In this document: positions 16,428-40,405 of the stretch, one piece after another
Layout of the letters: every line of letters begins with the position of its first letter
Position numbering within the stretch: position 1 is the first letter of the stretch
Assembly (NCBI GenBank): GCA_963798085.1
Contig: CAWCRS010000001.1
Span: 64,001 to 128,000 of the forward strand
From: an uncultured Gemmatimonadales bacterium
GTDB lineage: Bacteria > Gemmatimonadota > Gemmatimonadetes > Longimicrobiales > RSA9
Direction of reading: 5' to 3'
Length of the DNA: 64,000 nt
Made by a program: the position numbers and the translations under genes
Notes under the pieces: model-generated
Databases searched by the model: none
What the model saw: only the letters and a program-made list of their open reading frames with translations
What the model was told of the DNA's origin: nothing

Positions 16428-16775
16428 GTGGAACACGTTCGCGTCGTAATGGCCGGCCTGCCACGCATGCTCCGGGACCTGATCCGCGTTCAGCTGGAAG
16501 CGGAGCCGGGCGTGGTCGTGGCGGCGGAAAGTGGCGTGGTAGCGGCGCTGCCCGAACTGCTGTCGGATGGTCGGGCGGATGTGCTGGTGCTGGGCGTCAC
16601 CTCGGAGCCGAGCTGGCGTGCGGTGTGTGAAACGCTGGCGCTGCGCGAGCGGTTGCGGATGCTGACCGTGGGTGAGGGCGGGCGCGTGCTGCGCGTGTAC
16701 GCGCTGCGTGCGCGTCCGGTCGAGGGATCGATCGCAAGTCTGATCACCGCGATCCGTGAAGAGAGCGGCGAGTGA
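16428..16775 (+). CDS. Degenerate stand-alone receiver (REC)-like protein
   Basis: VRVVMAGLPRMLRDLIRVQLEAEPGVVVAAE...ADVLVLG resembles a NarL-type REC fold without the acidic pocket or phospho-Asp; no HTH. Confidence 0.6.
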   Translation: MEHVRVVMAGLPRMLRDLIRVQLEAEPGVVVAAESGVVAALPELLSDGRADVLVLGVTSEPSWRAVCETLALRERLRMLTVGEGGRVLRVYALRARPVEGSIASLITAIREESGE

Positions 16776-16827
16776 GCGGCAACCGGCGGCAGACCGGCTG
16801 CTCGCGTGTTGACGTCGAGGAGGTGCC

Positions 16828-19059
16828 ATGCCTGCAAGCCTGACGTTCCCCGGTGTTTACCTCGAAGAATTGCCCAGCGGCGTTCGCACGATCACCGGCG
16901 TGGGCACATCGCTGGCCGCGTTCCTCGGCTTTACGCCGCGCGGCCCCGTGAATCGTGCGGTGCGCGTGCAGAGCTTCGCCGATTTCGAGCGCAGCTTCGG
17001 CGGGCTCAGCACGGCCAGTCCGCTCGGGCACGCGGTGCGACAGTTCTTCCTGAACGGCGGCGCCGACGGCTATGTGGTGCGCGCCGCGGCGGGCGCACAG
17101 ACCGCGAGCGTGCAGCTGCTCGACACGGGCGGCAATCCCTCGCTCGAGGCCACGGCCTCGTCGCCGGGCGCCTGGGGCAACTTCCTCCGCCTGACAGTCG
17201 ATTACGCCACCGCATCGCCCGAGAGCACGTTCAACCTGCGCGTGACCGAGCTGGTGCTGGACGGCGGCACGCCGCGTGTGGGACGCGCGGAGAACTTCGG
17301 CGGCCTCACCATGAACAGTCTGGCCGCGAACTACGCGGTCGACGTAGTGAACGCCGCTTCACAGCTGATCCAGCTCACGCGTCTGGCGGGCGCAGCGGCC
17401 AATGCGGGCACGGCGTTCAGCGGCCCGATCGTGGCCGCTGACCTGGCCGCGCTCGACGCGGGCCACAACCGCCTGGCCGTCTTCGTCAACGGACAGGGTC
17501 CGTTCGAGGTAGCGCTGGCGCTGCCGGTCGCCGATGTCGCGGATCTCGCGAACAAGATCACGACCGGCCTGAACGCGACCGGCGATCCGCTGGCCGCGGG
17601 CGTCACCGTCTCCGCCGCGGGCAGTCGCATTCAGCTCACGTCGGGCACGACGGGTGACGACTCGACGCTTCGCGTGGGTCCCGCCAGCACCAATAATGCA
17701 TCCATCAGGCTGCACTTCGGCGTGATCAATGGCGGTCGCGAAGTCAATGCGGCGGGCGTGATCCGTCCCTCGCCCAGCGGCACGACAGGCGGCGCCGCCA
17801 TTGACACGGCCACGGTGGCGACCGGCCCGCTCGACGTCACGGTCACGCCGCGTGTGGGCGGCGCGGCCACCGACACGCTCGCGCTCACCGTTCCCCCGCA
17901 GCCGCTGACCGCGGCGCAGGTGCGCACCATTGTCGAGCAGGCCCTGCGTGCGGCCACACGCCCGGCGCTGCGCACAGCCACGGTCGCGCTGGTGGATAAC
18001 AGACTTGTCATCACTGCCGCCAATGACGATGCCACCCGCCTCGGCTTCGGCAACACGCTGGCGGCACCGCTCGGTCTGACGGGCGGCACCAGCAATGTTG
18101 CCATGTATGCGCTGGGCACCGGTCCGACAGCGGGGCAGCAGGTGCAGGGCACGTCGGGTTTCGATGGCAATCCGCCTTCGCCTGCCGACCTGATCGGCAG
18201 CCGCGCCGCACGCACCGGCCTCTACGCGCTCGAGGGCGTCGACCTCTTCAACATCATGCTGGTGCCCGGCGAAACCTCGAACGCAGTGTTATCCGAGGCG
18301 CTGGCCTACTGCACCGAGCGCCGCGCCATGCTCATTGTCGATCCGCCGCAGAATGCGCAGTCGGTGGATGATGCGACGACGTGGCTCGACTCGATCGGCG
18401 CCCTGCGCAGCCGCAACGCGGCCGCCTACTTCCCGTGGGTCTCGCTGGAGGATCCGGTGCGCGGCTTCCGTCCCACCGGCTTCCCGCCCTCGGGCACCGT
18501 GGCCGGCGTCTGGGCGCGCACGGATACCGAGCGCGGCGTGTGGAAGGCACCCGCCGGCACCGACGCCAGCCTGCGCGGCACCATCGGCCTCGCCAGCACG
18601 CTGACCGACGCGCAGAACGGCGTGCTCAATCCGCTCGGCCTCAATGTGCTGCGCACACTGCCCGTGTTCGGCTCCGTGGTCTGGGGCGCGCGCACACTGC
18701 GCGGCGCCGACCAGATGGCCGACGAATACAAGTACATCCCGGTGCGCCGCCTCGCGCTGTTCCTCGAGGAAAGTCTGTTCCGCGGCCTGCAGTGGGTGGT
18801 GTTCGAGCCCAATGATGAGCCGCTCTGGGCGCAGATCCGTCTCAATGTCGGCGCCTTCATGCAGACGCTGTTCCGCCAGGGCGCATTCGCCGGCACATCG
18901 CCACGCGACGCCTATTTCGTGAAGTGCGACAGCGAGACGACGACGCAGAACGACGTGAATCTCGGTGTGGTGAATGTGGTCGTCGGATTCGCGCCGCTCA
19001 AGCCGGCGGAATTCGTCGTTATCAAGATCCAGCAGATGGCCGGCCAGGTGCAGACCTGA
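16828..19059 (+). CDS. Contractile tail sheath protein (Afp2/3/4-like)
   Basis: PGVYLEELPSG, FFLNGG, AAAYFPW, RGVWKAPAG, VWGARTL, YIPVRR, WVVFEPND, FAPLKPAEFV; GAGGAGG RBS. Confidence 0.97.
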   Translation: MPASLTFPGVYLEELPSGVRTITGVGTSLAAFLGFTPRGPVNRAVRVQSFADFERSFGGLSTASPLGHAVRQFFLNGGADGYVVRAAAGAQTASVQLLDTGGNPSLEATASSPGAWGNFLRLTVDYATASPESTFNLRVTELVLDGGTPRVGRAENFGGLTMNSLAANYAVDVVNAASQLIQLTRLAGAAANAGTAFSGPIVAADLAALDAGHNRLAVFVNGQGPFEVALALPVADVADLANKITTGLNATGDPLAAGVTVSAAGSRIQLTSGTTGDDSTLRVGPASTNNASIRLHFGVINGGREVNAAGVIRPSPSGTTGGAAIDTATVATGPLDVTVTPRVGGAATDTLALTVPPQPLTAAQVRTIVEQALRAATRPALRTATVALVDNRLVITAANDDATRLGFGNTLAAPLGLTGGTSNVAMYALGTGPTAGQQVQGTSGFDGNPPSPADLIGSRAARTGLYALEGVDLFNIMLVPGETSNAVLSEALAYCTERRAMLIVDPPQNAQSVDDATTWLDSIGALRSRNAAAYFPWVSLEDPVRGFRPTGFPPSGTVAGVWARTDTERGVWKAPAGTDASLRGTIGLASTLTDAQNGVLNPLGLNVLRTLPVFGSVVWGARTLRGADQMADEYKYIPVRRLALFLEESLFRGLQWVVFEPNDEPLWAQIRLNVGAFMQTLFRQGAFAGTSPRDAYFVKCDSETTTQNDVNLGVVNVVVGFAPLKPAEFVVIKIQQMAGQVQT

Positions 19060-19098
19060 GTCGGGACTGTCGGCAAGTAATCTCGTCGGAGGCCGGTC

Positions 19099-19626
19099 AT
19101 GGCACAGTTCACGGTCAATGCCACGCGCTTCGATCCCTACAAGAACTTCAAGTTCCGCGTGAAGTGGGATGGTCGATACGTCGCGGGCGTGAGCAAGGTC
19201 GGTTCGCTCAAGCGCACCACGGAAGTGGTGAAGCACCGCGAGGGCGGCGATCCCAGCTCGAGCCGGAAATCCCCCGGTCGCACGGAATTCGATGCCATCA
19301 CGCTGGAGCGCGGCGTGACACACGACACCGAGTTCGAGAAATGGGCCAACAAGGTGTGGAACTTTGGCTCGGGCCTGGGCGCGGAGACGTCGCTGCGTGA
19401 TTTCCGCAAGGACGTGATCCTCGAGGTCTACAATGAAGCCGGTCAGCTGGTGCTGGCCTACAAGATCTTCCGCTGCTGGGTCTCCGAATTCCAGGCGCTG
19501 CCGGACCTCGACGCCAACGCCAATGCTGTCGCCATCCAGCACATCAAGCTGGAGAACGAAGGCTGGGAGCGTGACTACAATGTGGTCGAGCCGCAGGAGC
19601 CCAGCTTCACTGAACCGCTGACGTAG
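19099..19626 (+). CDS. Tail tube protein (T4 gp19 / Afp1/5-like)
   Basis: DPYKNFKFRV, HREGG, KSPGRTEFDAITLERG, LDANANAVAIQHIKLENEG. Confidence 0.96.
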   Translation: MAQFTVNATRFDPYKNFKFRVKWDGRYVAGVSKVGSLKRTTEVVKHREGGDPSSSRKSPGRTEFDAITLERGVTHDTEFEKWANKVWNFGSGLGAETSLRDFRKDVILEVYNEAGQLVLAYKIFRCWVSEFQALPDLDANANAVAIQHIKLENEGWERDYNVVEPQEPSFTEPLT

Positions 19627-19628
19627 TC

Positions 19629-20420
19629 GTGGGGCGCAGTACGAGTCCGTCCGATCTGCTGCGCGTCTGGGAACGAGGCGATTCGCGCCCGCTGCCCGAG
19701 CGCGCGCTCGAGCTGCTGGCGCTCGCGCTGCCGGACGCACCGTGGGACGAGCTCGCCGCCCTGTCCTTGGCCGCGCGCGATCGCGAACTGCTGCGGCTGC
19801 GCGCGGCGCTGTTCGGCGAATCGCTCGATGCCACCGCCCGCTGTCCCGCGTGTGCGGGCACGGTCGCGTTCCGCACGACAGTTCCGGAGATGCTGCGCGC
19901 CCTCTCCGGCGACGCACCGGTTCAGCGGCTGGATCTGGAAGGCGACACGTTCCGGGTCCGGCCACCGAACGCGCTCGACCTCGTCCTCGCCGCACGCTGC
20001 GCCGATGCCGCTGCCGCCACCCGCCTGGTCATGCAACGTTGTGTTAGCACAGACACCGGTGCACCGGACGACGGCAGCATGACGGCGGGGGCAGGCGCGG
20101 ACGGAGCAGGTCCGGCGGCCCGGGATAACGGCTGGTTTGACGGATTGCCGGATGCCGCGCAGGCTGCCCTTGCCGCGGCCATGGATCGCGTCACCGAGCC
20201 CGCTTCCCTGCAGATCGCACTGGCTTGCGCGGACTGTGGCGCGCATGTGCCGGTGGAGTTCGACATTGTCCCTTTCCTCTGGCGCGAAGTCGCCGCCGAG
20301 GCGAAGCGGCTCGCGAGTCAGGTCGTGCTGCTGGCCCGGGCCTTTGCCTGGCGCGAACGCGACATCCTCGAGCTCTCCGCCGCCCGCCGCCGTCTCTACC
20401 TCGAGCTGGCAGGCGGCTGA
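19629..20420 (+). CDS. eCIS tail/baseplate assembly chaperone-like protein
   Basis: Follows the tube gene; CPAC and CADC pairs; C-terminal LARAFAWRERDILELS..RR.YL motif. Confidence 0.7.
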   Translation: MGRSTSPSDLLRVWERGDSRPLPERALELLALALPDAPWDELAALSLAARDRELLRLRAALFGESLDATARCPACAGTVAFRTTVPEMLRALSGDAPVQRLDLEGDTFRVRPPNALDLVLAARCADAAAATRLVMQRCVSTDTGAPDDGSMTAGAGADGAGPAARDNGWFDGLPDAAQAALAAAMDRVTEPASLQIALACADCGAHVPVEFDIVPFLWREVAAEAKRLASQVVLLARAFAWRERDILELSAARRRLYLELAGG

Positions 20421-21199
20421 TGGGCGCGCTCGATCGTCTGGTCTCGCGCACCCTGGAGAGCGCGCCCGTGGCCCGGCCCGTGCTGACACCACTGTTCGCA
20501 GCACCCGGCCCGCCGCCGCCATTGCCCGGCCTGCCCGTACCGGAGGCTCGCGGTGCCGTCCCTGCCGGTCGCGCAACCGCCGAGCCGCGGTCGAGCGATC
20601 GGCCGGCAGGCGCCCGCGCAGAGCGACTCTCGCTCGAGGAATGGCTCGACTCCCCGGCCCGGCAGGCCAGCGCATCCGACCGCTTCACGCGCGCGGTTTT
20701 GTCAGCGGGCGAGGCTGACGCGAATGTTGCGCGCCCGCGGGGTGCAGCGTGGGCGGATCCCGCAGAGAGTGCGGCTCACGTGGCGGCGGTACGCGAGACC
20801 GTGCCCACCGGGTCGGCGCCGCGTGCGCCCATCGCCGACGCCGTCACGCAGGGCGGCGATGCGGCGCAGGCCGCGCGTGGGTCGGCCGCCGAGGCGATCG
20901 ACAGGCTGGCCCGCCGCCTGGACGCGCGCGAAGCGCAGGATGGCGCACGCCCCGCTCCACGGATTGCAGGCGACGATGCCGCCTCGGCTCGCCGGCCCGC
21001 TGCCGCGAACCCGCCGGTCGTCTTCGAACAGTCCGTTAGCAGCGCTGCCGGCGCGCCTGCGGAAGCGCCGGTGGTGCGGGTGAGCATTGGCCGCGTGCTG
21101 GTGCGCGCCATCCTGCCGCCGCCTTCGCCTCGACCCGCGGCGCGACCGGGCCCGGCCGGACCCACGCTCGAGGAGTACCTGCGCGGAGGCCGGCGATGA
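20420..21199 (+). CDS. eCIS-associated Ala/Pro-rich hypothetical protein
   Basis: Overlaps both neighbours; low complexity with C-terminal VRVSIGRVLVRA...TLEEYL. Confidence 0.7.
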   Translation: MGALDRLVSRTLESAPVARPVLTPLFAAPGPPPPLPGLPVPEARGAVPAGRATAEPRSSDRPAGARAERLSLEEWLDSPARQASASDRFTRAVLSAGEADANVARPRGAAWADPAESAAHVAAVRETVPTGSAPRAPIADAVTQGGDAAQAARGSAAEAIDRLARRLDAREAQDGARPAPRIAGDDAASARRPAAANPPVVFEQSVSSAAGAPAEAPVVRVSIGRVLVRAILPPPSPRPAARPGPAGPTLEEYLRGGRR

Positions 21200-22505
21200 G
21201 CAATGCGCTGTGCATTGCCACGGTCACGTCGACACTGCGGCGCGAACTGACGCTCGCACTGACGGCGAACGTGGCCGGTCGCGTGCCCAACACCACGGTC
21301 ACGACCCTGCGGCCGGACCGCGTGCAGAATCCGCTCGCCGATCCCACTGTCAATCTGTTCCTCTACGCGGTGACGCCGGACCCGTCGTTCCGCAACGTGG
21401 ATCTGCCCACGCGCAGCAGCAACGGCCGGCTGACGGCGGGAAACCGCGTCGCGCTCGACATGCACTACCTGCTCACGTTCCACGGCGATGATGCCACGCT
21501 CGTGCCGCAGCGGCTGCTGGCCATTACCGCGAGAACGCTGCACGCGCACCCCGTGCTGACGGCGCAGATGATCCGTGACACGGTGGCGGACGCGGCGACG
21601 TTTCCGTTCCTGGCCGGCGCCGACCTGGATCAGGCCGATGAGCCCGTGCGCATCACGCCCGCGCCGCTGACGCTCGAGGAGACATCGAAGTTCTGGGCCA
21701 TGTTCCCGCAGACGTCGGCCGCGCCATCACTGAGTTACATCGCGGCCGCCGTGCTGGTCGCTGCCGAGGCGCAGCCGGCGGCAGGACCGCCGGTACGGCT
21801 GCGCAATGTCTACGTGGTGCCGGCCGCACAGCCGTTCATCGAGCGCGTTACTGGGCCGGCCGGCATCAACGACCCGCTCGTCGCGAGCAGTACGCTGGTC
21901 ATCAGCGGACGTGCGCTGCGCGCCGATATCACACAGCTGCGCGTGGAGGCGGCCACCATCGATGTAGTGTCCAATCCAGCGGGCACGGAGATCCGCGTGC
22001 CGGTGCCCGCGACCGTACTCGCCGGACTGCGGGGCGCGCAGATCATCCAGCCGCAGCAGCTGGGCACACCGCCGGTGCCGCACCGCGGCATGGAATCCAA
22101 CGTCGCGCCGTTCCTGCTGCGGCCCGCGATCGCGCAGGACAATCCCGGCAACTTCCTGGTCTCGGCCGGCAACATCGTTGCGGGTGCGGGCAATCTGCGT
22201 ACGGCTGACATCACGTTCACCGTGACGCCCGCGGTGGGCAAGCGGCAGCGCATGCTGCTCTACCTGATCGAGCGGCTGCCGCCTGCGGATCGCGCGCCGC
22301 GCGTGTTCGCGGTCGTAGCGCCATCGCGTGACGTGCCGGCCGAACCTGAGACGCGCGCGGTGTTCACGCTCACGGCCGCGAACATCGAGGCCGGTGATTA
22401 CGTGGCCAGGCTGCAGGTGGATGGCGCCGACAGCACGTTCGTCGCCGACGCCGATCCGCAGAGCCCCACGTTCAACCAGTTCATTGCGCCCCGCGTGCAG
22501 GTCCC

Positions 22506-22509
<4 letters not shown>
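21196..22509 (+). CDS. DUF4255 / Afp16-Pvc16-like cap (tail terminator) protein with C-terminal Ig-like extension
   Basis: MSNALCIATVT, VNLFLYAV...FRN, LDMHYLLT, PSLSY. Confidence 0.9.
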
Positions 22510-24508
<1,999 letters not shown>

Positions 24509-24512
<4 letters not shown>

Positions 24513-30344: not shown

Positions 30345-32899
30345 CGCGCTACCGCTGCGCGGACGATGAGCGCCGCGCCCGCCTGCTCGAGCAGATCACC
30401 GGCACACCGCAGATTCCGCCGGTGCCGCCGGCCAGTGCCATCAACGGCATTGATTTCCTGGAAGTCGACGACGATCCCGCCGACCCGCTCGCCGACCGCC
30501 AGCGCACACTGCACGTCCACTTCCTGTTCGACGTCGCGCCGCTCGGCCTGACCGTCGACAACCTGCAGCTCGAGGGTGGCGAGCGCATCCGCAACGTGCA
30601 GATCGAGGCGGGCACGTTCGCGACCGCTGGCAATGTCGTGACGTTCGAGGTGGACGAGGCCGGCGACTTCTCGCCGTACACGCTGCGTCTCGTCAACTCC
30701 GCGGTGGACATCACGCCACCGCCCGGCTGCGATCCCATCCTTTCCGCAGTGACGTTCAGCTTCAAGGCTGGCTGTCCGAGCGATTTCGACTGTCGCGATG
30801 CGACGACATGCGCGCCTGTTCCGCCGCCGGCGACGGCTCCTGACATCGACTATCGCGCCCGCGACTTCAATGCCTTGCGCACGCTCATGCTGGACCGCCT
30901 GGCTGTGCTCTCGCCGGCGTGGACCGAGCGCAATCCCGCAGACCTCGGTGTGATGCTGGTCGAGGCACTCGCATACGTCGGCGATCAGCTGAGCTACCGC
31001 CAGGACGCGGTCGCCACGGAAGCGTACCTGCACACCGCGCGCAGCCGCATTTCTGTGCGCCGTCACGTCCGCCTGGTCGATTATCAGCTCCGCAATGGGT
31101 GCAACGCGCGCGCCTTCGTGCAGCTGCAGGCGAACGCCGACGGCGTGCTCGTTCCTGCCGCGACACCGCTGCTCACGGCGATCACGGGCCAGCCCGCACG
31201 CCTCGACGCGCTGCCGGCAGGGCTCGATCAGTCGGATGCGCCCGCCGTCTTCCTGACCCTGATGCCGGTAACGCTGACGCAGGCGCACGACACCATGGGC
31301 TTCTACACCTGGGGCGGGCGCGACTGCTGTCTGCGGCAGGGTGCGACCAGCGCCACGTTGCGCGGCGCTTTTCCTGGTCTGGTGCGCGGCACATTCCTTG
31401 TGTTAGCCGAAGCGAAGGGCCCGCGCACGGGCGAGGCAGAGGATGCGGATCCGACGCGTCGCTGCGTGGTGCGCCTGACGCGTGATGCACGCATCACCGT
31501 CGACCCGATCGGCGGCCGCTTCGATTCGCCGCCCACCGGCAATCCGGTCACGCTCACCGAAATCGAGTGGAGTGTCGCCGACGCGCTGCCCTTCACGCTC
31601 TGGATCAGCGGCACCGCGGATGCCGAGCACCTGGGCGTGGCCATCGACGACATCAGCGTCGCGCACGGCAACATCGTGCCCGCGGACCACGGCCGCCCGG
31701 TGACTGGCGAGCTGTTAGGCGATGTGCCCGGCGGTCTGCTGCGTGTGGGCGGGCGCACGGCATGCTGCACCGTGCTGGACGACACCCTGGTTCCACCGCG
31801 CTTCCGCCCCCGCCTTGCCGAAGCGCCGCTGACGCGCGCCATCACGCTCGACCTGAGCGTGCCGTCGCCGCCGGTCTCTGGTGAGGCCGACACGCTGCTG
31901 TCCGCGCAGGCCTTCGCGACCGCGACCGCCGATCAGGCCGAGCCTGTGATCGGGCTCGATACCGTGGAAGCCGTTCCCGAACCCTGGAGCCCGGTGTCGG
32001 ATCTGCTGGCCAGCGGCGAGGACGATGCGTCGTTCGTCGTCGAGAGCGAGAGCAATGGCGCGTCGTATCTGCGTTTTGGCGATGACACGTTCGGCCGGCG
32101 CCCCGCCGCAGGCACGGCTTTCGTTGCGAACTACCGTGTTGGCAACGGCAACAGCGGCAATGTCGGGCTGGCGGCGATCCGTCACGTGGTCAGCACCGAT
32201 GGCCGGCTGACGGGCGCAGCCAACCTGCTGCCTGCTGCCGGTGGCATCGAACCCGAGACCATCGCGGAAGCGCGTCTGCGCGCGCCCGTCGCGTTCCGCA
32301 CGCAGGAGCGTGCCGTCACACCCGACGACTACGCGCGTCTCGCGGAGACGCACCCGGAAGTGCAGCGTGCCGCGGCCGCGTTCCGCTGGACCGGCAGCTG
32401 GCGCACGGTATTCCTGACCGTGGATCGCGTCGGCGGCCTGCCCATCGATGATACATTCGAGGCGACGATGCGTCGTCATCTGGAACGCTATCGTCTGACC
32501 GGCCACGACCTCGAGATCGAGACGCCGGATTTCGTATCCCTCGAGATCGCCATGGATGTCTGTGCGGGGCCGGAACGCGCGGCGTCGGATGTGCGACGCG
32601 AGCTGCTCGACATCTTCAGCGCGCGTCAGCTGCCCGATGGCCGCCGCGGTCTCTTCCACCCCGACGCGCTGACGTTCGGCCAGACAGTGTTCCTCAGCCG
32701 TCTCTACTCGGCGGCGCAGAAGGTCGCCGCCGTGCGCACGGTGTCCATCACCACGTTCCAGCGGCAGAGCCAGCCGCTGTCGTCGGGCATTACCTCGGGC
32801 CGTCTGGAATTTGCGCGCACGGAGATCGCCCGCCTCGACAATGATCCCGATTTCCCCGAGCACGGCGTGCTGACCATAACCGTGGGAGGTGGCCGGTGA
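30341..32899 (+). CDS. Baseplate J/gp6-like wedge protein 1 (Afp11-like)
   Basis: IDYRARDF, WTERNPADLG, YRQDAVATEAYL.TA, LRFGD, YRVGNG, RAVTPDDY. Confidence 0.92.
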   Translation: MTRYRCADDERRARLLEQITGTPQIPPVPPASAINGIDFLEVDDDPADPLADRQRTLHVHFLFDVAPLGLTVDNLQLEGGERIRNVQIEAGTFATAGNVVTFEVDEAGDFSPYTLRLVNSAVDITPPPGCDPILSAVTFSFKAGCPSDFDCRDATTCAPVPPPATAPDIDYRARDFNALRTLMLDRLAVLSPAWTERNPADLGVMLVEALAYVGDQLSYRQDAVATEAYLHTARSRISVRRHVRLVDYQLRNGCNARAFVQLQANADGVLVPAATPLLTAITGQPARLDALPAGLDQSDAPAVFLTLMPVTLTQAHDTMGFYTWGGRDCCLRQGATSATLRGAFPGLVRGTFLVLAEAKGPRTGEAEDADPTRRCVVRLTRDARITVDPIGGRFDSPPTGNPVTLTEIEWSVADALPFTLWISGTADAEHLGVAIDDISVAHGNIVPADHGRPVTGELLGDVPGGLLRVGGRTACCTVLDDTLVPPRFRPRLAEAPLTRAITLDLSVPSPPVSGEADTLLSAQAFATATADQAEPVIGLDTVEAVPEPWSPVSDLLASGEDDASFVVESESNGASYLRFGDDTFGRRPAAGTAFVANYRVGNGNSGNVGLAAIRHVVSTDGRLTGAANLLPAAGGIEPETIAEARLRAPVAFRTQERAVTPDDYARLAETHPEVQRAAAAFRWTGSWRTVFLTVDRVGGLPIDDTFEATMRRHLERYRLTGHDLEIETPDFVSLEIAMDVCAGPERAASDVRRELLDIFSARQLPDGRRGLFHPDALTFGQTVFLSRLYSAAQKVAAVRTVSITTFQRQSQPLSSGITSGRLEFARTEIARLDNDPDFPEHGVLTITVGGGR

Positions 32900-35529
32900 C
32901 CGAGCCGCGGCTGCCTGACAGCGAGTTCGAGCGCAACCGCCACGCGGCCCTGCGCGCGCGTCTGCTGGCGCAGCTCTCGGCCGCGAATCACCCGGCGCTG
33001 GCCGGCCTGACATCGCGCGCGCCCGATGACTTCGTCATTGCGTTGCTTGATGCCTGGGCGGCGGCCGGCGACGTCATCAGCTTCTATGACGAGCGCATCG
33101 CCAACGAATCGTATCTGCGCACGGCGACGGAGCGCTTCTCCGTGCTCCAGCTCGCGCGGCTCATCGGCTACGAGCCTCGCCCGGGCCTCGCGGCGGAGAC
33201 TTTCCTGGCGTTCACACTGGAGACCGCGATCGGCGCACCGCGCGCGGTTACGATTGCGCCGGGCGCCAGGGTGCAGAGTCAGCCCGGCCCGGGCGAGCTG
33301 CCGCAGCTGTTCGAGACCGTCGAGGAGATCCCTGCACGACCCGCGTGGAACGCGCTGGTGCCACGTCTGAGCGTGCCCCAGAACGTGACCGTGAACAACG
33401 CTTCGTTCACGGTGGCCGCCGGCGCCGCGATCCAGCCTGGTGATGCACTGTTAGTGCGTGCGGGCGGCGCCTTCCAGGTGCGGCGCGTGCGCCGCGTCGT
33501 ACCTTCGCCCGATGCGCGCACCACCCGCCTCGATGTGAGCACGGGCGCCACCGGCACGGGTGCGCTGGTCGAGCTGTCCACCGGCGCCTTCGCCGCGCCT
33601 TTCACGGATGCCGCGCCGCTCAATGCAAACACCGTGAACAACCGCATCCTCGGTCGCAAATGGCATCAGGCGGACCTGCTGGCGCTGGCGGCCGCGCAGC
33701 AGTGGCCGCTCGACAAACTCACGGCCGCGATCCAGGGCCAGCTCGCGGCGCGCGCCTCGGCCTCCGCCGGAGAGCTGTACGTGATGCGGCAGCGCGCCGC
33801 GCTGTTCGGCCACAACGCGCCCGCGTACGAGTCGCTCCCCGCATCACTGCGCTTCACGAGTTTCCGCGAAGCCACCAAGACGACCGCGGGCATCGCGACG
33901 TTCGCATCGGTCGGCGCCGCATTCGGCACGAACTGGGAGAATCGCACGGCCGCACAGGAGGCCGGGTCGCAGCCGGTGATCTTCCTCGATGCCGTGTATC
34001 CCGGCATCACACCGGGCGGCTGGGTGGTGCTGCGCGACGGCGACAACCAGCGCGCCTATCAGATCACGGACGTCGGCGAGGTGGCGCGCACGTCGTTCAC
34101 CTTGAGTGCAAAGGTTTCCCGCCTGCTGCTCAACACCGCCGCCGATCTGGGCCTCTTCAAGCTGCGTACCACCACCGTGCTGCTGCAGAGCGAGCCGCTC
34201 ACGCTCACGGGTGTTCCAGTGGCAGCACCGGTGGCCGGCAGCGCCATCCAGCTCGACTCGCCGTATCTCGAGCTGCGGGCGGGACAGCGACTCGCCGCCA
34301 GCGGCCCGCGTGCCGACCTGGCCGGTGCAGCAGCGGGCGAAGTGCGCTCGCTGGCTGACACCGTGCTGGACGACGGCCGCACCGTGCTCGTGCTCGACCG
34401 TGCGCTCGATTTCACATACGTGCGCAGCGACCTGCAGCCGGAGGGGCGGGTTCGCCTGTGCGCCAATGTCGCGCGCGCCACGCACGGCGAGTCCGTGAGC
34501 GAGATCGTGGGCGCCGGCAATGCGCGCAAGCCGTTCCCGACTTTCGCGCTGCGCCAGTCGCCCCTGACGTTTGTGAGCGCTGCCACGCCTTCAGGCGAGG
34601 CGTCCACGCTCGAGCTGCGCGTAAATGATGTGTTATGGAAGGAAGTGCCCACGCTCGTCGGCCAGGCCGCCACGGCCAGGGTGTTCTCCACGCGCGTCGA
34701 GGATGATGGCAGCACCACGCTGCAGTTCGGCGATGGCAGTACGGGCGCCCGCCTGCCCTCGGGCACGGACAATGTGCGCGCCACGTATCGCAAGGGCATT
34801 GGCACGGCCGCCCTGCTGGATGCGGACCGGCTGACACTGCTGTTGACGCGGCCGCTGGGCGTCAAGGATGTGACCAACCCGGTGCCGGCAGTGGGTGCGG
34901 ACGATCCGGAATCACGCGATGCGGCGAGGCGCAATGCGCCGCTCACCGTGCTGACACTGGGCCGCATCGTCTCACTGCAGGACTACGAGGACTTTGCGCG
35001 CGCCTTCGCCGGTATTGCCCGCGCCTTCGCCACGTGGATGTCGCTGGGCAATGAGCGTGGCATCCTGCTCACGGTCAGCGGTCCCCGCGGCGAGGATGTC
35101 GCGGAAGGCAGCGTACTGGCGGGCAATCTGCTGAGCGCCATCGCGCAATCCGGCGATCCCAGGGTGCCCGTTCGCCTGGTGAATCGCAGCCGCGTCTGGT
35201 TCCGCCTGGACGCGCGCGTCCGCACGGATCCCGACTTCACCCGCCTCAAGGTCCTGGCGCAGGTCGAGCAGGTGCTGCGCACGCGCTTCGGCTTCGATGC
35301 CCGCGACTTCGGGCAGGCGGTCACGCTCGCCGAAGTCATGGCCACCATGCACGAAGTGGCGGGCGTTGTCGGCGTGGATGTCGATGCGCTGTACCGCCCG
35401 GACGAGCAGGGCGCCATTCCTAACACTGTCGTACCCTCCCATGTGCCGCCCGCCGGCACGGCGCTGGCCACACCCGCCGAGCTGGTGCTGCTGGACCCCC
35501 GGCCCCTCAACTTCGCGGAGCTGTCGTGA
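32896..35529 (+). CDS. Baseplate J/gp6-like wedge protein 2
   Basis: FYDERIANESYLRTA, LIGYEPRPG, ANVARATHGE, QFGDG..GARLPSG, RIVSLQDYEDFA. Confidence 0.92.
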   Translation: MTEPRLPDSEFERNRHAALRARLLAQLSAANHPALAGLTSRAPDDFVIALLDAWAAAGDVISFYDERIANESYLRTATERFSVLQLARLIGYEPRPGLAAETFLAFTLETAIGAPRAVTIAPGARVQSQPGPGELPQLFETVEEIPARPAWNALVPRLSVPQNVTVNNASFTVAAGAAIQPGDALLVRAGGAFQVRRVRRVVPSPDARTTRLDVSTGATGTGALVELSTGAFAAPFTDAAPLNANTVNNRILGRKWHQADLLALAAAQQWPLDKLTAAIQGQLAARASASAGELYVMRQRAALFGHNAPAYESLPASLRFTSFREATKTTAGIATFASVGAAFGTNWENRTAAQEAGSQPVIFLDAVYPGITPGGWVVLRDGDNQRAYQITDVGEVARTSFTLSAKVSRLLLNTAADLGLFKLRTTTVLLQSEPLTLTGVPVAAPVAGSAIQLDSPYLELRAGQRLAASGPRADLAGAAAGEVRSLADTVLDDGRTVLVLDRALDFTYVRSDLQPEGRVRLCANVARATHGESVSEIVGAGNARKPFPTFALRQSPLTFVSAATPSGEASTLELRVNDVLWKEVPTLVGQAATARVFSTRVEDDGSTTLQFGDGSTGARLPSGTDNVRATYRKGIGTAALLDADRLTLLLTRPLGVKDVTNPVPAVGADDPESRDAARRNAPLTVLTLGRIVSLQDYEDFARAFAGIARAFATWMSLGNERGILLTVSGPRGEDVAEGSVLAGNLLSAIAQSGDPRVPVRLVNRSRVWFRLDARVRTDPDFTRLKVLAQVEQVLRTRFGFDARDFGQAVTLAEVMATMHEVAGVVGVDVDALYRPDEQGAIPNTVVPSHVPPAGTALATPAELVLLDPRPLNFAELS

Positions 35530-37556
35530 CCATTACCGCCGATCGGCTCGCCGGGCTGCTGCCGGCCCTCTATCGCGTCCGCGATGCGGAGGCGGGCGGA
35601 CCGCTGCAGGCACTGCTCGAAGTCATTGCTGCTTCCATGGCAGACCTCGAGGAGGAGATCGAGCAGCTTTACGACAATCAGTTCATCGAGACCGCTTCGC
35701 CTTCGGTACTGCCGTGGTTCGCCGATCTCGTGGGCGCGCGCGCCTTCGGCCTGCCCGTCGAGAAGGATGAGACGCAGCCGGAGCGCAGTGCGGAATCGCT
35801 GCGCGCGCAGATCGCCAACACGGTGGGTAACCGGCGCCGTCGCGGCACGGCTGCAGCACTCGAGCAGGTGGCGAGGGACATCACGGGCTGGGACGCCGTC
35901 GTCGTCGAATTCTTCCAGCGTCTTGCTGCCACGCAGGCGCTGCACCACCTGCGGCCCGGCAACATCGTGACCGCAGACCTGCGCGACATTGCCGGCCTGG
36001 ATCGCGTCGGCTCGGCCTTCGAGCCCGTCACGCGCACGGTGGACGTGCGCCGGATTGCCTCGGGCCGCGGTACGCACAACATCCCCAACGTCGGCATCTT
36101 CCTCTGGCCGTTCCGCGCCGAGCGGTGGGTGCTGTCCCCCGCCTTCGAGATCGATCCCCGGCGCTTCGTGCTGCACCCGCTCGGCATCGACGCGGCGCTG
36201 CGCACAGATCCCGTGGCCGAGCGTTCGCTGGCCGGACTGGCGCAGCCGCTCAACCTGCCACTGCCCATCAGCCGCCGCGCCATGGACGCCGCGCTGGACG
36301 ACTACTACGGCGCCGGCAGAAGTCTGCTGCTCAATGTGGATGGCGTGCCCGTTACGAGCAACGTGTTAGTCGCCGACCTGTCGAATGTCGGCGCGGATGA
36401 CGCGTCCGGCTGGTCCTGTGCGCCCGCTGCAGGCGACATTGCGGTGGACCCCGTGCTCGGCCGCATTGCCTTCCCGCCCGCGGCGCCGCCGCCCACCACG
36501 GTGCGCGCCAGCTTCTTCGCTGGGCATCGCACGGGCATGGGCGGTGGCGCCTACGAGCGCGCCGCCAGCTTCCGCTCGCCCGGCTCCGTGCTCGCGCAGG
36601 TCACGGGCGCGGTCAGCACGATCCCCACCGCCATCGCACAGGTGCTGGATGGCGGCACCATCGAGATCACGGACAGCGATCGCTACATCGATTCACTCCT
36701 CATTCAGGCGAATGACAACGCGCAGATCGAGCTGCGCGCGGCCAACGAGCACTTCCCGCACCTCGCGCTGCCCGACGACTTCGAGATCAATGGCGACGGC
36801 ATCGAGGTCTGGCTGAATGGCCTGCTCATCAGTGGCGCCGCGATTGTCGTGGGGCCGGGCGTGGCGCAGGTGCACATCCGCCATTGCACGCTGGTGCCCG
36901 GCAGCGGCCTGAACCGCAATGGCACGCCCGTCGACACCACGGCGCCGTCGCTCATCATCGAGGGCACCGCCACCAGCGTCGAGATCGAGAGCAGCATCGT
37001 CGGCACGGTGCACCTCACGCGCGGCTCCTCGCTCAGCGCGCGTTACAGCGTCATTGATGCCACAGCGCCGGACGGCATCGCGCTGGCCAATGGCACACTG
37101 GCCGCTGCGGGTGGTGCCGTGTCGCTCGAGCAGTGCACGGTGATCGGCAAGGTGTGGACGGAACAGCTGGATGCATCCGACAGCATCCTGTTTGCCCGCC
37201 TGGCCGCCGCCGATCCGTGGACCTCACCGGTGCGCAGCGAAAAGCGACAGGAAGGCTGCGTGCGTTTCAGCTTCGTGCCGCCGGGCTCGCTCACGCCGCG
37301 GCGCTACCGCTGCCAGCCCAATGCCGCGCACACCGGCCTGCTCCCGCGCTTCCGCACCCTGCGCTTCGGCCTGCCGGACTACGCCCTGCTCGCGAAGAAC
37401 TGCGCGCCCGAGATCGCGGAAGGCGGGGATGATGGAGGCGAAATGGGCGCGTTCGTAAGACTGCGTTTGCGCCAGCGCGTGGCCAATCTGCGGGCCGCGC
37501 TGCCGGAGCATCTGCGATTCGGGCTCGAGGCCGGCACTTTCGTGTCGGAACTCTGA
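35526..37556 (+). CDS. Baseplate wedge / tail protein I-like protein with C-terminal beta-helix-like region
   Basis: LLPALYRVRD, QLYDNQFIETA, RRRRGT..ALEQVARDITGW, VDPVLGRIAF, GCVRFS, GEMGAF. Confidence 0.8.
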   Translation: MTITADRLAGLLPALYRVRDAEAGGPLQALLEVIAASMADLEEEIEQLYDNQFIETASPSVLPWFADLVGARAFGLPVEKDETQPERSAESLRAQIANTVGNRRRRGTAAALEQVARDITGWDAVVVEFFQRLAATQALHHLRPGNIVTADLRDIAGLDRVGSAFEPVTRTVDVRRIASGRGTHNIPNVGIFLWPFRAERWVLSPAFEIDPRRFVLHPLGIDAALRTDPVAERSLAGLAQPLNLPLPISRRAMDAALDDYYGAGRSLLLNVDGVPVTSNVLVADLSNVGADDASGWSCAPAAGDIAVDPVLGRIAFPPAAPPPTTVRASFFAGHRTGMGGGAYERAASFRSPGSVLAQVTGAVSTIPTAIAQVLDGGTIEITDSDRYIDSLLIQANDNAQIELRAANEHFPHLALPDDFEINGDGIEVWLNGLLISGAAIVVGPGVAQVHIRHCTLVPGSGLNRNGTPVDTTAPSLIIEGTATSVEIESSIVGTVHLTRGSSLSARYSVIDATAPDGIALANGTLAAAGGAVSLEQCTVIGKVWTEQLDASDSILFARLAAADPWTSPVRSEKRQEGCVRFSFVPPGSLTPRRYRCQPNAAHTGLLPRFRTLRFGLPDYALLAKNCAPEIAEGGDDGGEMGAFVRLRLRQRVANLRAALPEHLRFGLEAGTFVSEL

Positions 37557-37565
37557 CAGGTCAGC

Positions 37566-37586: not shown

Positions 37587-37603
37587 CGCACAGGAGATCG
37601 ACC

Positions 37604-40405
37604 ATGCACGGCGACTTCAGCCGCCAGACATTCGAGCCGCGCAAGCATTATGCGGGCGTGCTGCTGCAGCAGGGTCGCGTCCAGACCAATGCGGACTGGA
37701 ACGAGGCCACGCAAATCGGGCAGCACCAGCTCGAGACCACGGCCGCCAATGTGATCGGCCCGACGGGTGCTCCCCGTGATAACGCCGGGTTCCAGCTGAG
37801 CGCCGCGGGCGCCACCCTCAACATTGGCGCCGGCCGCTACTACGTCGACGGCATCCTCTGCGAGAACGAGGCGGCCCTGGCGCTCAGTGCGCAGACCGGC
37901 GCGGCGCCACCCGCGGGCGCCGGCCTCTACGCCGTGTACCTCAATGTGTGGCGCCGCCATGTCTCGGCCATCGAAGACCCGTCCATTCGCGAGCCGGCAT
38001 TGGGCGGGCCCGATACGGCAACGCGTGTGCAGACCGCATGGCTGGTTCGCCTCGTGCGCATTGGCAATGCCAACGCCAATGCGGTGTGCAGCACGGTGTC
38101 GCCGCAGTGGCAGGCCACACTGCCCGCCAGCACCGGTACGCTGCGCGCGTCCACGCAGGCGGTCGCTGCGCCCACCACGCCCTGCGTGCTGCCCGCCAGT
38201 GCGGGCTATCGCGGCCTCGAGAATCAGCTCTACCGCGTGGAAGTGCACGGGGCCGGCAACCAGGCAACCGCACGCTTCAAGTGGTCGCGCGAGAACGGCT
38301 CCGTGGTGGCCGCCGTGGAGAGCGTGAGCGGCGCCGATGTCACACTGCGCGACCTGCGCACCGATGACCCCCTCGGCTTCGCCCAGGGCGACTGGGTCGA
38401 GCTGATCGATGATGCGCTGGAAGCCGCGAACCAGCGCGGCGATCTCTTCCAGATCGCGCAGCTCGCGCCCGAGATCCGCCGCGTGACGCTCAATACCGCA
38501 CCCGCGCTCGTGGCTAACGCGGCATTGCACCCGCGGCTGCGTCGCTGGGACCAGACGGCGGGCGCCACCAGCCAGGGCGTGTCCATGGTGCCGGGCGGTG
38601 GCGCCACCTCCATATCGCTGGAGCGCGGCGTCGAGGTGAGCTTCGGCGCGGGCCAGTACAATGCCGGCGACTACTGGCTCATTCCCGCGCGCACCGCGCT
38701 GGGCAACGAGCTGGGCACCATTGACTGGCCCGCGGGCCAGTTCCTGCCGCCCGCCGGCATCCGCCACCACTTCGCGCTGCTCGGCGCGTTCAACTTCGAT
38801 GGCGCGAACTTCAGCGCCACGACAGCGGCCGACTGCCGCGAGATCTTCCCGCCGCTGACCGATCTGCACGCAGTCGACGTGGCCTATGACGCCGGCGCCT
38901 GCAGCGACCTGGCGGGCGTGACCACCGTGCAGCAGGCGCTCGATGTGCTGTGCGACCGGCGGGAGGAGTGCTGCGGCATCGTGCTCGAGCCGCTGCCCGG
39001 CTGGGAAGCGGCCTTCGACCAGATCCCGGCCGGCGGTCACGGCCACTTCTGCTTCCGCGCGGCCGACTATCCGCTGGCGGCCACGAAGACCATCACCGGC
39101 AAGGGCACGATCCTGCTGACGGGAGCCGGTCCCGCGAGTCGCATTGTCACCAACAACGAGTGCGCGCTGCTCTTCTCCGGCTGTACCAGTGTGACGGTGC
39201 GCGATGTCGCGTTCATCAGCGGCAGCCCGGGCAAGCCCGTGACTGGCCTGAAGGCGCTGAACGGCGTGCTCACCTGCGACAACGTGGCTGCGGTCACCAT
39301 TGAGCACGTCTCCGCCAGCTGCTCCGCGTCTACGCGCAAGAAGAGCGCATGCCTGGCCGTGCGCAATGCCGCGGTCGCGAGCGCCACCGCGGCCGGACCC
39401 GGAACGGTGCGCATCCGTGGCTGCGACATCGAGGTGGGCTATCAGCAGGTGGGCATCCTCGTGGTCAATGCGCTGCGCGCCACCATCGAGGACAACGCGC
39501 TCCGCGTCGGTCCCGACGTGCCGGCGGGCGCGCAGATCCACCGCCGCATCACGGACCCGGCCGTGCGCGCGCCCATCAGCAAACTCCTGGTTAAGGCGTC
39601 TGTAGCGAAAGCCGCGGGCTCGTCCGTGCCCGCGCCGGTGGTCACCACGGCGGCCGGCGGCGCCATCACGCTGCGCGCGGGCGCGCAGCAGGTCAACTTC
39701 TCCACGGATCCCTCGCTCGCGCCGGCGTGGTCCGCGCTCATCGCCGCCGCACCGCCCACCGACACCACCACCGCGGCGGCTGTCGCCGCGTACGTCAGCT
39801 CGCTCGCCAATCGCGTGCTCTTCGACCCGACGTTCCGCGAGCAGTTCGCGCTGCTGCGCACCTGGTTCGACACGCTGCGCGCCGACAACCCTCCCGCCGC
39901 GGCGCAGGGCATTGTCGTGGGCGGCCAGGTCGCGCGTGACGTGCGCGTCCGCGGCAACACGCTGTCAGGCATGATCGAAGGCGTGCACATCGGTGTGAGC
40001 CACCGCGAGGGACAGCGCGGTACGCCCGACAGCGCCGGCACCGTCCTGATACGCGACAATTCCATCGACACCGTGCTGCCTGCCGCCACCACGCGCCAGC
40101 GTTATGGCATTTACCTCGGCAACTGCGACAGCGCCGTGATCGAGGACAACTTCATCAGTGTGCAGCGCACCGTGCTCACACTGCGCATGCACGTGGATGG
40201 CATCCACATCTTCGGACGCATGGGCCGGCGCCTGATCGTGCGCCAGAACCACCTGCGCGGCTTCCAGACCGGCGTCGCCTTCACCCCCACACCGGCATCG
40301 CTCACGGCGTCCCGGCTCTGGGTGGTGGCGGAAACCATGGCGGAGTCCGCCAGTGTCGCCGTGACGGGGCCGGCGAGCCTGATCCAGGCGAACAACATCA
40401 AGTGA
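37604..40405 (+). CDS. DUF6519-type tail fibre with C-terminal right-handed beta-helix
   Basis: MHGDFSR, LQQGRV...DWNE, GRYYVDGILCE, YRGLENQLYRVEVH, FKWSRENGS, GDYWLIPART; repeated IEDN/VRGN/IRDN/VRQN rungs. Confidence 0.88.
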   Translation: MHGDFSRQTFEPRKHYAGVLLQQGRVQTNADWNEATQIGQHQLETTAANVIGPTGAPRDNAGFQLSAAGATLNIGAGRYYVDGILCENEAALALSAQTGAAPPAGAGLYAVYLNVWRRHVSAIEDPSIREPALGGPDTATRVQTAWLVRLVRIGNANANAVCSTVSPQWQATLPASTGTLRASTQAVAAPTTPCVLPASAGYRGLENQLYRVEVHGAGNQATARFKWSRENGSVVAAVESVSGADVTLRDLRTDDPLGFAQGDWVELIDDALEAANQRGDLFQIAQLAPEIRRVTLNTAPALVANAALHPRLRRWDQTAGATSQGVSMVPGGGATSISLERGVEVSFGAGQYNAGDYWLIPARTALGNELGTIDWPAGQFLPPAGIRHHFALLGAFNFDGANFSATTAADCREIFPPLTDLHAVDVAYDAGACSDLAGVTTVQQALDVLCDRREECCGIVLEPLPGWEAAFDQIPAGGHGHFCFRAADYPLAATKTITGKGTILLTGAGPASRIVTNNECALLFSGCTSVTVRDVAFISGSPGKPVTGLKALNGVLTCDNVAAVTIEHVSASCSASTRKKSACLAVRNAAVASATAAGPGTVRIRGCDIEVGYQQVGILVVNALRATIEDNALRVGPDVPAGAQIHRRITDPAVRAPISKLLVKASVAKAAGSSVPAPVVTTAAGGAITLRAGAQQVNFSTDPSLAPAWSALIAAAPPTDTTTAAAVAAYVSSLANRVLFDPTFREQFALLRTWFDTLRADNPPAAAQGIVVGGQVARDVRVRGNTLSGMIEGVHIGVSHREGQRGTPDSAGTVLIRDNSIDTVLPAATTRQRYGIYLGNCDSAVIEDNFISVQRTVLTLRMHVDGIHIFGRMGRRLIVRQNHLRGFQTGVAFTPTPASLTASRLWVVAETMAESASVAVTGPASLIQANNIK

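Follow-up and report, generated by a model that had tools for sequence, protein, structure and literature searches.

A contractile injection system operon with subtype IIa-like gene content in a Gemmatimonadota genome

We analysed a stretch of 64,000 nt (the window) from an uncultured Gemmatimonadales bacterium (assembly GCA_963798085.1, contig CAWCRS010000001.1, positions 64,001 to 128,000), whose 6.23-Mb assembly comprises 12 contigs and is 90% complete. Between positions 16828 and 40405 of its plus strand the window carries an operon whose products, judged by their families, make up a contractile injection system (CIS) from the Afp/PVC-related extracellular CIS (eCIS) superfamily, and neither a prophage tail nor a classical type VI secretion system (T6SS). 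The system is real and complete, and its type is already catalogued and widely exchanged. Taken as a single joint claim, we consider it rather probable that this is a complete lineage II CIS with the gene content of subtype IIa, which is probably intact, was acquired horizontally, and for which a fibre-guided extracellular mode of action is favoured.

The G+C content of the window is 64–72%, and spurious open reading frames (ORFs) are therefore plentiful; the gene chain was picked out by G+C per codon position, with start codons chosen beside the preceding stop. By this measure one tightly packed chain runs from 16.8 to 40.4 kb, within co-oriented plus-strand ORFs that occupy 16428–40405. In our revised gene list 13 of 19 junctions overlap by 1–8 nt and no gap exceeds 52 nt; simple reasoning says that 19 to 20 consecutive same-strand genes with such translational-coupling overlaps are not chance. 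Related loci came from a sheath-alignment scan, one genome per species, in which at least 599 of 606 stretches were confirmed; 80 were kept as named loci, each with a 10-kb flank. An earlier note on this DNA had listed 20 genes here. Its operon was real and tightly packed, yet its list missed a 99-aa gene (g07b), split one gene into two (g12 and g13) and opened with an ORF (g01) that was matched in none of the 80 loci; it had also placed the start of g08, which lies at 24805, further upstream. Gene g07b (24509–24808, plus) has ATGA overlaps at both ends and a codon-position G+C of 0.78/0.55/0.80, and tblastn located it directly 3' of the ATPase gene both in the same-family genome G013 and in 17 of the named loci.

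A Pfam scan of each ORF, as the earlier note had proposed, found a family at E ≤ 0.01 on 13 of 20. Families above their cut-offs were the sheath, gp19 tube, Pvc16_N, AAA with its winged-helix domain (WHD), eCIS_core/DUF4157, Phage_base_V, gp25, Baseplate_J, Tail_P2_I and DUF6519, and PHROGs agreed with the part assignments from Pfam and NCBIfam. The eight subunit types that make up the eCIS core backbone of Chen 2019 (sheath, tube, cap, ATPase, Afp7, Afp8, Afp9 and Afp11) were all found, and the eCIS identity recognised in the earlier note was borne out by Pvc16_N, an Afp15-type ATPase and DUF4157 beside phage-tail genes. The organism's own genome (6.2 Mb) contained this single locus and no second copy of any structural gene.

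The sheath gene, g02 (16828–19059, plus), encodes a 743-aa long form with an inserted domain (PF04984, PF17482; phrog_23 tail sheath, 2.4e-52). Its best sequence matches in the PDB were the CIS of Streptomyces coelicolor/venezuelae (8bky, 7.1e-82; also 8bl4) and of Halogeometricum borinquense (9ezm, 2.2e-81). Pvc2 (1.6e-46) and Afp3 (3.3e-42) came next, with PVC, Afp, Anabaena tCIS and AlgoCIS spanning 1e-35 to 1e-46; pyocin and T4 sheaths scored about 1e-9 to 2.6e-8, and none of the 21 matches bore a T6SS VipA/B or TssB/C name. The inserted domain lies at residues ~190–440. Among 87 sheaths compared, 14 were longer than 700 aa and most measured 500–540 aa, the long forms being scattered and not forming one clade. 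The inner tube protein, g03 (19099–19626, plus; PF06841, 6.8e-45; TIGR02241, 1.7e-43), is nearest in the PDB to Anabaena tCIS (7b5h, 2e-15) and AlgoCIS (7adz, 1.4e-14). Gene g06 (21196–22509, plus) encodes an Afp16/Pvc16-like tube/sheath cap (PF14065 Pvc16_N, 8e-40) present in 67 of 80 loci, and g07 (22506–24512, plus) encodes an Afp15-like AAA+ ATPase with a winged-helix domain (PF00004, 7e-27; PF22977, 2.2e-15; phrog_10401 ATPase, 2.1e-68).

Most of these parts are phage-tail homologues that match PHROG tail families, which is the argument for a prophage tail remnant or an R-type tailocin. We regard that origin as very improbable, given Pvc16_N, the Afp15-like ATPase and DUF4157, and a sheath far nearer to CIS than to pyocin or T4 sheaths. 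A family scan of 28 flanking ORFs returned no capsid, portal, terminase, packaging, integrase or T6SS membrane-complex family and no lysis gene, which upholds the absence of head, packaging and T6SS genes reported in the earlier note; what these ORFs encode is transporters, peptidases, regulators and enzymes. No tRNA gene was found in the window. As for a classical T6SS, the sheath is one 743-aa protein, and no TssB/TssC, TssJLM or ClpV was seen in the operon or the 28 flanking ORFs.

We then placed the operon among described subtypes. In the accessible part of PMC6899500, Afp14 is generally missing from lineage II; two afp11 copies occur in IIa and IIc; afp8 is split into gp27 and gp5 ORFs in IIa, IIb and IIc; afp10 is missing from IIb alone; and divergent afp12 and afp13 are kept in IIa and IIb. 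In our operon the gp27-like gene stands apart from the gp5-like gene g14, as it does in 19 relatives. Genes g17 (30341–32899, plus; Afp11/Cis11a; PF04865, 2.1e-08; TIGR02243, 8.6e-87; PDB 9gtp_1K, 8.8e-20) and g18 (32896–35529, plus; second Afp11; TIGR02243, 1e-55; phrog_219, phrog_6; PDB 9gtp_1K, 7.7e-05, and T4 gp6, 0.0015) both match TIGR02243 and are therefore two Baseplate_J-like paralogues. Gene g19 (35526–37556, plus) encodes a P2 gpI/Mu gp48-like outer baseplate protein, a divergent Afp12 (PF09684, 2.2e-05, above cut-off; PF10076, 3.1e-06; TIGR02242), and together with the DUF6519 and beta-helix fibre g20 it accounts for the divergent Afp12/13 pair; no tape-measure (Afp14) family was found on any operon ORF in Pfam, NCBIfam or PHROGs. 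Because split Afp8, two Afp11, divergent Afp12/13 and the lack of Afp14 occur together, the gene content appears to fit subtype IIa alone among the described subtypes, by published description and not by a tree with reference loci.

The operon resembles the lineage II IIa loci of dbeCIS in the eight core types, split Afp8, two Afp11, a weakly assigned PAAR-like gene, divergent Afp12/13 and no Afp14 by sequence; it differs in its long sheath (743 aa). Afp of Serratia entomophila and PVC of Photorhabdus (Ia) share the general plan and the trio of cap, AAA+ ATPase and DUF4157-linked cargo. In the published descriptions, as far as these were accessible, they differ in having three sheath and two tube paralogues, fused Afp7, fused Afp8, one Afp11, a recognisable Afp14 and adenovirus-like fibres, and their sheaths match g02 only at 1e-39 to 1e-46. 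CIS-Sc of S. coelicolor (IId; PMC10066040; 8bky, 9gtp) gives the best PDB sequence matches of three products, namely the sheath, a J-like and the LysM-like protein, but according to the available part of its description its Afp8 is contiguous, Afp11 occurs once, a fibre is lacking, and the system is cytoplasmic. The locus of Gemmatimonas aurantiaca T-27, from the same phylum, is catalogued as IIb in the supplement of PMC6899500, where the accessible text describes IIb as having afp6 and lacking afp10. The earlier note had stressed an architecture differing from Afp/PVC. The differences are real but not unusual: they are published hallmarks of lineage II IIa, the fibre class is catalogued, and every one of the 80 named loci shows this gene order.

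The remaining baseplate genes complete the set. Afp7 in two genes, as the earlier note had it, holds, with modest scores. Gene g10 (27040–27699, plus) would be the tube initiator and N-terminal part of Afp7/Cis7 (PF19266 CIS_tube, 5.8e-06; at 26.6 bits just below the cut-off of 27); its positional orthologues are 42–65% identical, and the best E-value of a PDB sequence search was 0.13. Gene g11 (27709–28020, plus) would supply the C-terminal part as a small LysM/gp53-like baseplate protein (phrog_7145 baseplate wedge, 1.2e-7), and its PDB match is to a Streptomyces Cis7-like chain, 9gtp_P, at the LysM end (residues 181–230, E 0.0075). The spike includes an OB-fold protein corresponding to the C-terminal part of gp5/VgrG, g14 (29138–29653, plus; PF04717, 3.3e-23; TIGR01646 vgr_GE; phrog_430), and a weakly assigned PAAR-like tip, g15 (29653–29988, plus; DUF4280, 0.0049; PAAR_motif, 0.0075), while g16 (29985–30344, plus) is a gp25-like wedge protein, or Afp9 (PF04965, 1.1e-16; phrog_43).

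Several observations weigh against our joint claim where it concerns completeness and class. The system is known here from its genes alone; the IIa call follows described gene content; and the E-values of the PDB entries 9ezm (IIa) and 8bky (IId) are too close to tell the two subtypes apart. No PDB sequence match was found for the cap g06, the gp27-like protein (g12–13) or g19, and both PAAR matches of g15 fall below their cut-offs; a small conserved gene occupies the expected Afp10 position.

The base of the spike required closer attention. The earlier note's split of Afp8 stands in that the gp27-like and gp5-like genes are separate, but g12 and g13 are not two genes. They form one gp27-like gene (28013–29141, plus; ORFs 28013–28861 and 28881–29141; weak VgrG_rel and Phage_GPD matches) that is frame-broken near 28761. 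The VgrG-related NCBIfam matches on g13 and g14 fall at consecutive profile positions, and the reading frames of g12 and g13 swap between 28734 and 28771. In relatives the gene was a single ORF in 19 of 19 cases, comprising 16 of 16 complete named loci (371–380 aa) and the genomes G013, G023 (same family) and G028 (same order); 21 named loci had a g12 match, of which the other five run off the sequence end. A soil-metagenome contig covering 28734–29027 has one letter fewer at 28761 and one other letter difference. The rpoB gene of the same genome (G000:C5:436143–441079, minus) likewise lies in three frames, as ORFs of 340, 667 and 609 aa, and the 120 best RpoB relatives listed are single proteins of 1093–1443 aa. 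With rpoB cut in three, the assembly has indel errors and frame breaks in this genome deserve distrust.

Because the gene is one ORF in relatives, the metagenome contig lacks the extra letter and rpoB is broken too, we concluded that the g12/g13 break is probably an assembly error. That is, the spike base lies in three ORFs here only through the frame break, and the system is probably intact. The read evidence comes from one contig of depth 3, possibly from the assembly's own sample, and is suggestive and not independent, which tempers this conclusion. Metagenome cover of the window was partial in run X1, with some parts uncovered, and almost nil in runs X2 and X3; the public runs listed as containing DNA of this organism included no RNA run. 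The contrary explanation is a decaying, non-functional locus in which the gp27-like frame break is real and the candidate cargo genes are pseudogene-like, with only a remnant of DUF4157. The break is present in the assembly, and two cargo candidates described below (g09 and u11175) lack most of DUF4157. We nevertheless judge decay improbable: all other genes align at full length to their orthologues without further breaks, the broken rpoB and the unbroken metagenome contig point to the assembly, and short forms like u11175 recur as a family of 300–400 aa. The same 120 RpoB relatives, at 77–85% identity, also speak to the host. Nine carried an organism name, namely three Longimicrobiales, five Gemmatimonadota/Gemmatimonadetes and one Thermoanaerobaculia, so that eight of nine agree with the host phylum proposed in the earlier note.

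The operon type is widespread. Gene order was the same in all 80 named loci as far as the 10-kb flank reaches, and also in G013, G023 and G028: sheath, tube, g04, g05, cap, ATPase, DUF4157 slot, initiator, LysM-like, gp27, gp5, PAAR-like, gp25, J and J. The 80 loci span 14 phyla, two of them archaeal. Gene g02 was present in 80 of them, g03 in 79, g04 in 76, and g06 and g07 in 67 each, later genes being counted less often because the 10-kb flank ends. Culturable carriers include Pseudomonas fluorescens, Achromobacter, Ancylobacter and Bradyrhizobium. A split, divergent arrangement was seen in L085, a Trueperaceae metagenome-assembled genome (MAG), in which the baseplate block g10–g18 is encoded on the other strand, upstream of the sheath.

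We built a quick maximum-likelihood sheath tree (87 rows, LG+G4), with branch support from the Shimodaira–Hasegawa-like approximate likelihood ratio test (SH-aLRT) only. The window copy grouped with Ancylobacter defluvii and a proteobacterial MAG (SH-aLRT 93), and the same-family G013 and G023 and the same-order G028 were placed elsewhere; phylum labels needed 33 changes against a minimum of 13. A sheath was found in 13 of 40 relatives, a tally that includes the unpublished G015 and G016; the search of the same-genus genome (91% complete) did not find one. Given a sheath tree at odds with the hosts and a patchy presence in relatives, the cluster behaves as a horizontally exchanged cassette and was probably acquired horizontally by this organism. 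Clusters of this lineage have already been described as horizontally exchanged in the accessible parts of PMC6899500 and PMC11126660. No island border could be drawn against the same-genus genome G001, where DNA identity was just 64–75% and synteny began at ~44.4 kb, and scans for a sigma-70 promoter and a terminator at both operon ends found nothing.

The last gene, g20 (37604–40405, plus), encodes a fibre with a DUF6519 baseplate anchor and a C-terminal right-handed beta-helix (PF20129, 7.8e-68; PF13229, 1.6e-05). A DUF6519 fibre was found behind related loci in five of five genomes checked, lying ~20 kb downstream of the sheath in Pseudomonas fluorescens PS833. The accessible part of PMC12923769 catalogues DUF6519 with a beta-helix as the eCIS fibre class 'eBAP5', a receptor-binding protein. 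A hydropathy scan of the operon products found no convincing membrane protein. Since a fibre is present and no membrane-anchor gene was seen, a released, fibre-guided mode is modestly favoured. The earlier note had called the system extracellular. Its membership of the eCIS superfamily stands, but the mode was assumed, and the nearest characterised relatives by sheath are cytoplasmic (IId) or membrane-anchored (IIa). The preference is only modest because the haloarchaeal IIa system is anchored despite Cis12/13, Streptomyces systems act on the producer, and no lysis gene was seen in the operon or the 28 flanking ORFs. None of the close characterised relatives supports an extracellular mode, the IIa haloarchaeal system being membrane-anchored and the Streptomyces systems working in or on the producer, and this and the lack of lysis genes count against it.

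One alternative is that the same machine works inside or on its producer, either in the cytoplasm as in S. coelicolor, where it takes part in stress-induced cell death, or attached to the envelope as in S. davawensis, where it releases extracellular DNA. The best solved sheath relative by sequence is the cytoplasmic Streptomyces CIS (8bky, 7.1e-82), for the J-like protein and for g11 the sole match was 9gtp, a Streptomyces baseplate entry, and the missing lysis cassette would suit such a mode. We consider this alternative unlikely. A diderm host that has no mycelial life cycle counts against it. So do, as far as the CIS-Sc and IId descriptions were accessible, the lack of a conventional fibre in CIS-Sc clusters, where our operon has a DUF6519 and beta-helix fibre, and the split Afp8 and two Afp11, which are unlike described IId. 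The S. davawensis CIS (PMC11126660, accessible part) resembles our operon in belonging to a clade that reaches across distant phyla (Proteobacteria, Chloroflexota, Actinobacteria) with conserved synteny, and in a DUF4157 gene just upstream of the initiator and spike genes, which fits both the slot and the spread seen here. Tme, its DUF4157 protein, is encoded by the cluster's largest ORF (2247 aa) and contains membrane helices as well as a nuclease; g08, at 424 aa, shows none of these traits and no hydrophobic segments, while DUF4157 ORFs of related loci reach 1247 aa. Our operon thus shares with the tme type the DUF4157 genes (g08, g09) upstream of the baseplate genes but not the trait of a largest ORF with membrane helices and a tape-measure relationship.

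A second alternative, which we rate a little lower still, is a machine anchored to the producer's cytoplasmic membrane and fired outward on contact in a T6SS-like manner, as in haloarchaeal IIa. In the accessible part of PMC11566945, the Halogeometricum borinquense CIS, the sole characterised 'clade IIa' system, works in this way and carries DUF4157 toxins with downstream immunity genes in a variable mid-cluster interspacing region; the name Cis11a implies two Cis11, and no cis6, cis14 or cis19 was recognised. Our sheath is as near to 9ezm (2.2e-81) as to any other, and our DUF4157 genes likewise lie between the ATPase and baseplate genes. However, the haloarchaeal system is plasmid-borne, and its anchored mode correlated, in the same partial account, with a conserved six-helix membrane protein beside the cluster. 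None such was seen near our operon, either among the operon products in the hydropathy scan or among the neighbours, whose strong family matches mark them as ordinary transporters and enzymes. A diderm envelope would moreover need an outer-membrane conduit, and none was seen. We retain a released, fibre-guided particle as the modestly favoured mode.

The slot between the ATPase and initiator genes varied among relatives, and by analogy it would be a site for cargo cassettes. G028 had three DUF4157 genes there, G013 a single one and G023 none at all; in the named loci the slot held ORFs of 143–1247 aa. Gene g08 (24805–26079, plus) encodes a 424-aa DUF4157 (eCIS_core) protein with an HExxH motif, HELTH (PF13699, 4.6e-33), and its C-terminal domain recurs in locus L056 at 40% identity. 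Gene g09 (26084–27043, plus) encodes a DUF4157 remnant, 'HDFGRV', followed by a Cys-rich, weakly DUF922-like HEQxH domain. HEQxH is invariant in the alignment, and in locus L044 the domain follows a full DUF4157. A search with the single g09 protein found only itself; a profile of the domain matched 1553 cluster representatives at E ≤ 1e-3. We scanned 40 homologues of at least 394 aa, chosen for length among 150 listed of the 1553: all 40 carried PF13699 at the N-terminus, and 19 of 40 matched PF06037 (DUF922) weakly on the domain, three of them above cut-off. DUF922 is a family annotated as a putative zinc protease.

A third candidate, u11175 (11175–12227, minus), lies ~4 kb upstream of the operon and keeps only the first DUF4157 motif, followed by a conserved C-terminal domain of ~170 aa. 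Among 73 proteins of its family listed at E ≤ 0.001 (itself included), eight carried PF13699, and its 'RHDFGRIPI' aligns with the start of DUF4157 in the long forms. Just downstream is u10675 (10675–11175, minus), a 166-aa ORF without a family that is a possible partner or immunity gene by position and composition only. Neither had relatives in the 80 loci or in G013, G023 and G028, and by analogy the two may be an orphan cargo/immunity pair. The accessible part of PMC11566945 reports that haloarchaeal IIa DUF4157 proteins are toxic and secreted in a sheath-dependent manner, with immunity genes downstream, and that of PMC11126660 reports a loaded DUF4157 protein in S. davawensis. Because DUF4157 proteins are secreted or loaded in those systems, g08 and g09, and probably u11175, are cargo candidates. 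Against this, the C-terminal domain of g08 had no usable Atlas match, and the g09 model reached a predicted local distance difference test score (pLDDT) of just 61.7, with no Foldseek match in the PDB at E ≤ 0.001 and a best VIA Z of 5.8 to a generic helical match. Elsewhere in the genome a weak PF13699 match at C7:1078167 (L103:1369–1728; 119 aa, HELAHVQQ, HExxH; 24 bits) was not taken as cargo and is probably unrelated to the CIS; it lies between ComEC/metallo-beta-lactamase-like and fructose-bisphosphatase-like genes.

Two conserved genes between the tube and cap genes were examined further. Gene g04 (19629–20420, plus) encodes a T4 gp26/gp51-like protein with four invariant Cys, possibly acting in baseplate-hub assembly or as a chaperone (PF12322; in 76 of 80 loci). 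PF12322 (T4_baseplate) was matched by 22 of 22 aligned family members, with a best E-value of 6.4e-21; the window copy alone gave E 0.0035, 17.5 bits against a cut-off of 24.5. Its AlphaFold2 model had a pLDDT of 90.3 and a predicted template modelling score of 0.85. The model resembles predicted T4-like hub proteins that bear the names gp26 or gp51: BFVD gave 29 matches with E ≤ 1e-3, led by a 'baseplate hub assembly protein, T4-like' (2.7e-8). Profile searches of the PDB gave nothing significant, and Foldseek against the PDB gave no match at E ≤ 0.001. VIA suggested a weaker likeness to the HK97 tail assembly chaperone (Z 7.0, root-mean-square deviation 3.8, 94 aligned), a Z that is possibly unspecific.

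Gene g05 (20420–21199, plus) encodes a Pro/Ala-rich protein with conserved ends and no family in any library, which by position and motifs is a candidate tape-measure-like core protein. A positional homologue was present in 64 of 66 loci, with a C-terminal IGR[IV]E[IV]...SLDDYL motif and a length of 214–407 aa, once 1116 aa; an N-terminal motif is conserved too, and the Pro-rich middle is variable. The 1116-aa homologue, at L084:14058–17405 in Nostoc punctiforme NIES-2108, keeps the C-terminal motif and is a natural length variant. A predicted complex of g04 with the g05 N-terminus scored 0.89, against 0.14 for the best control. Of 157 solved complexes 116 attained this mark, as did 2 of 215 mismatched pairs, a calibration that is rough here since custom alignments were used. 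Runs shared at least 57% of contacts, and the partner pLDDT was at least 54. The g05 N-terminus is thus predicted to bind g04.

The order of sheath, tube, chaperone-like gene and variable-length gene resembles phage tail modules. From this order, the conserved ends, the variable middle and the predicted g04 binding, we tentatively propose that g05 and its homologues are an overlooked tape measure or internal core of lineage II, whose conserved N-terminus would be gripped by g04 as an assembly chaperone. Linked to this is the idea that the first DUF4157 motif, GHDFxx[IV]x[IV], the sole part kept in g09 and u11175, may be a minimal cargo-loading tag; jointly we consider the two ideas possible and no better than that. 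The Pro/Ala-rich g05 is unlike the helical classical tape measures, and in the accessible part of PMC11126660 it is the DUF4157 protein of S. davawensis, not a g05-like one, that is proposed as a tape-measure relative; both facts speak against our proposal. No recognisable tape measure is named in the accessible parts of the IIa and IId cluster papers, and a literature search combining CIS, assembly chaperone and tape measure found nothing on such a pair.

From these family assignments and the solved relatives, the system would work as follows. A spike of g12–13 (gp27-like), g14 (gp5-like) and g15 (PAAR-like) would form, and around it a baseplate of g10/g11, g16 and the J-like g17/g18 would assemble, with g19 outermost. 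The tube (g03) would extend from the initiator g10, g05 held by g04 serving as internal core or length ruler, and the sheath g02 would polymerise around the tube in a strained state. The cap g06 would close the end, and the AAA+ ATPase g07 may help assembly or the loading of cargo, that is, the DUF4157-type proteins g08, g09 and probably u11175. The particle would then leave its producer and bind another cell by the g20 fibre, whose beta-helix, of a polysaccharide-binding type, would fix the baseplate to the surface, and contraction of the sheath would push spike and cargo through a membrane.

Other features border the operon. The small receiver-like ORF g01 (16428–16775, plus) has a coding-like codon-position G+C of 0.80/0.48/0.78, yet is a doubtful member and was not counted into the system. 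It had no Pfam, NCBIfam or PHROG family; its Atlas feature matches were unnamed clusters of 115–130 aa, with receiver-like families scoring just 0.77–0.79; and a comparison with the window's response regulator was not significant. Two FtsX fragments on the plus strand (9562–9744 and 40412–40663) correspond to the last FtsX domain of a MacB-like permease, matching about residues 916–971 and 951–1002 of the paralogue at 57540–60626. Between them lie 30 kb with u10675/u11175, a block of aconitase-family, symporter and RraA genes, and the CIS operon, and the right fragment begins immediately after the g20 stop codon. No direct repeat in common was found, and the pair may be the scar of an insertion or rearrangement. 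MacB/FtsX-type permease paralogues are numerous, with copies at 44373–46877 (plus) and 57540–60626 (minus) and dozens in the same-genus G001 by a DNA query.

Our literature search found no functional study of a CIS in Gemmatimonadota, a soil phylum that is abundant but little cultured, and the operon adds to it a complete and probably intact lineage II system. The operon type is common to at least 14 phyla, with a phylogeny at odds with that of its hosts. What our analysis adds to the catalogued picture is modest: the probable artefact in the gp27-like gene, a cargo slot together with DUF4157 proteins of short form, and the pairing of g04 with g05. For two conserved genes described as lineage-specific and without a known domain a reading is now available, namely an assembly factor of the T4 gp26/gp51 type and the protein it is predicted to bind. 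If the proposal for g05 is true, a ruler that is not helical and has escaped sequence searches would set particle length across a large and widespread lineage.

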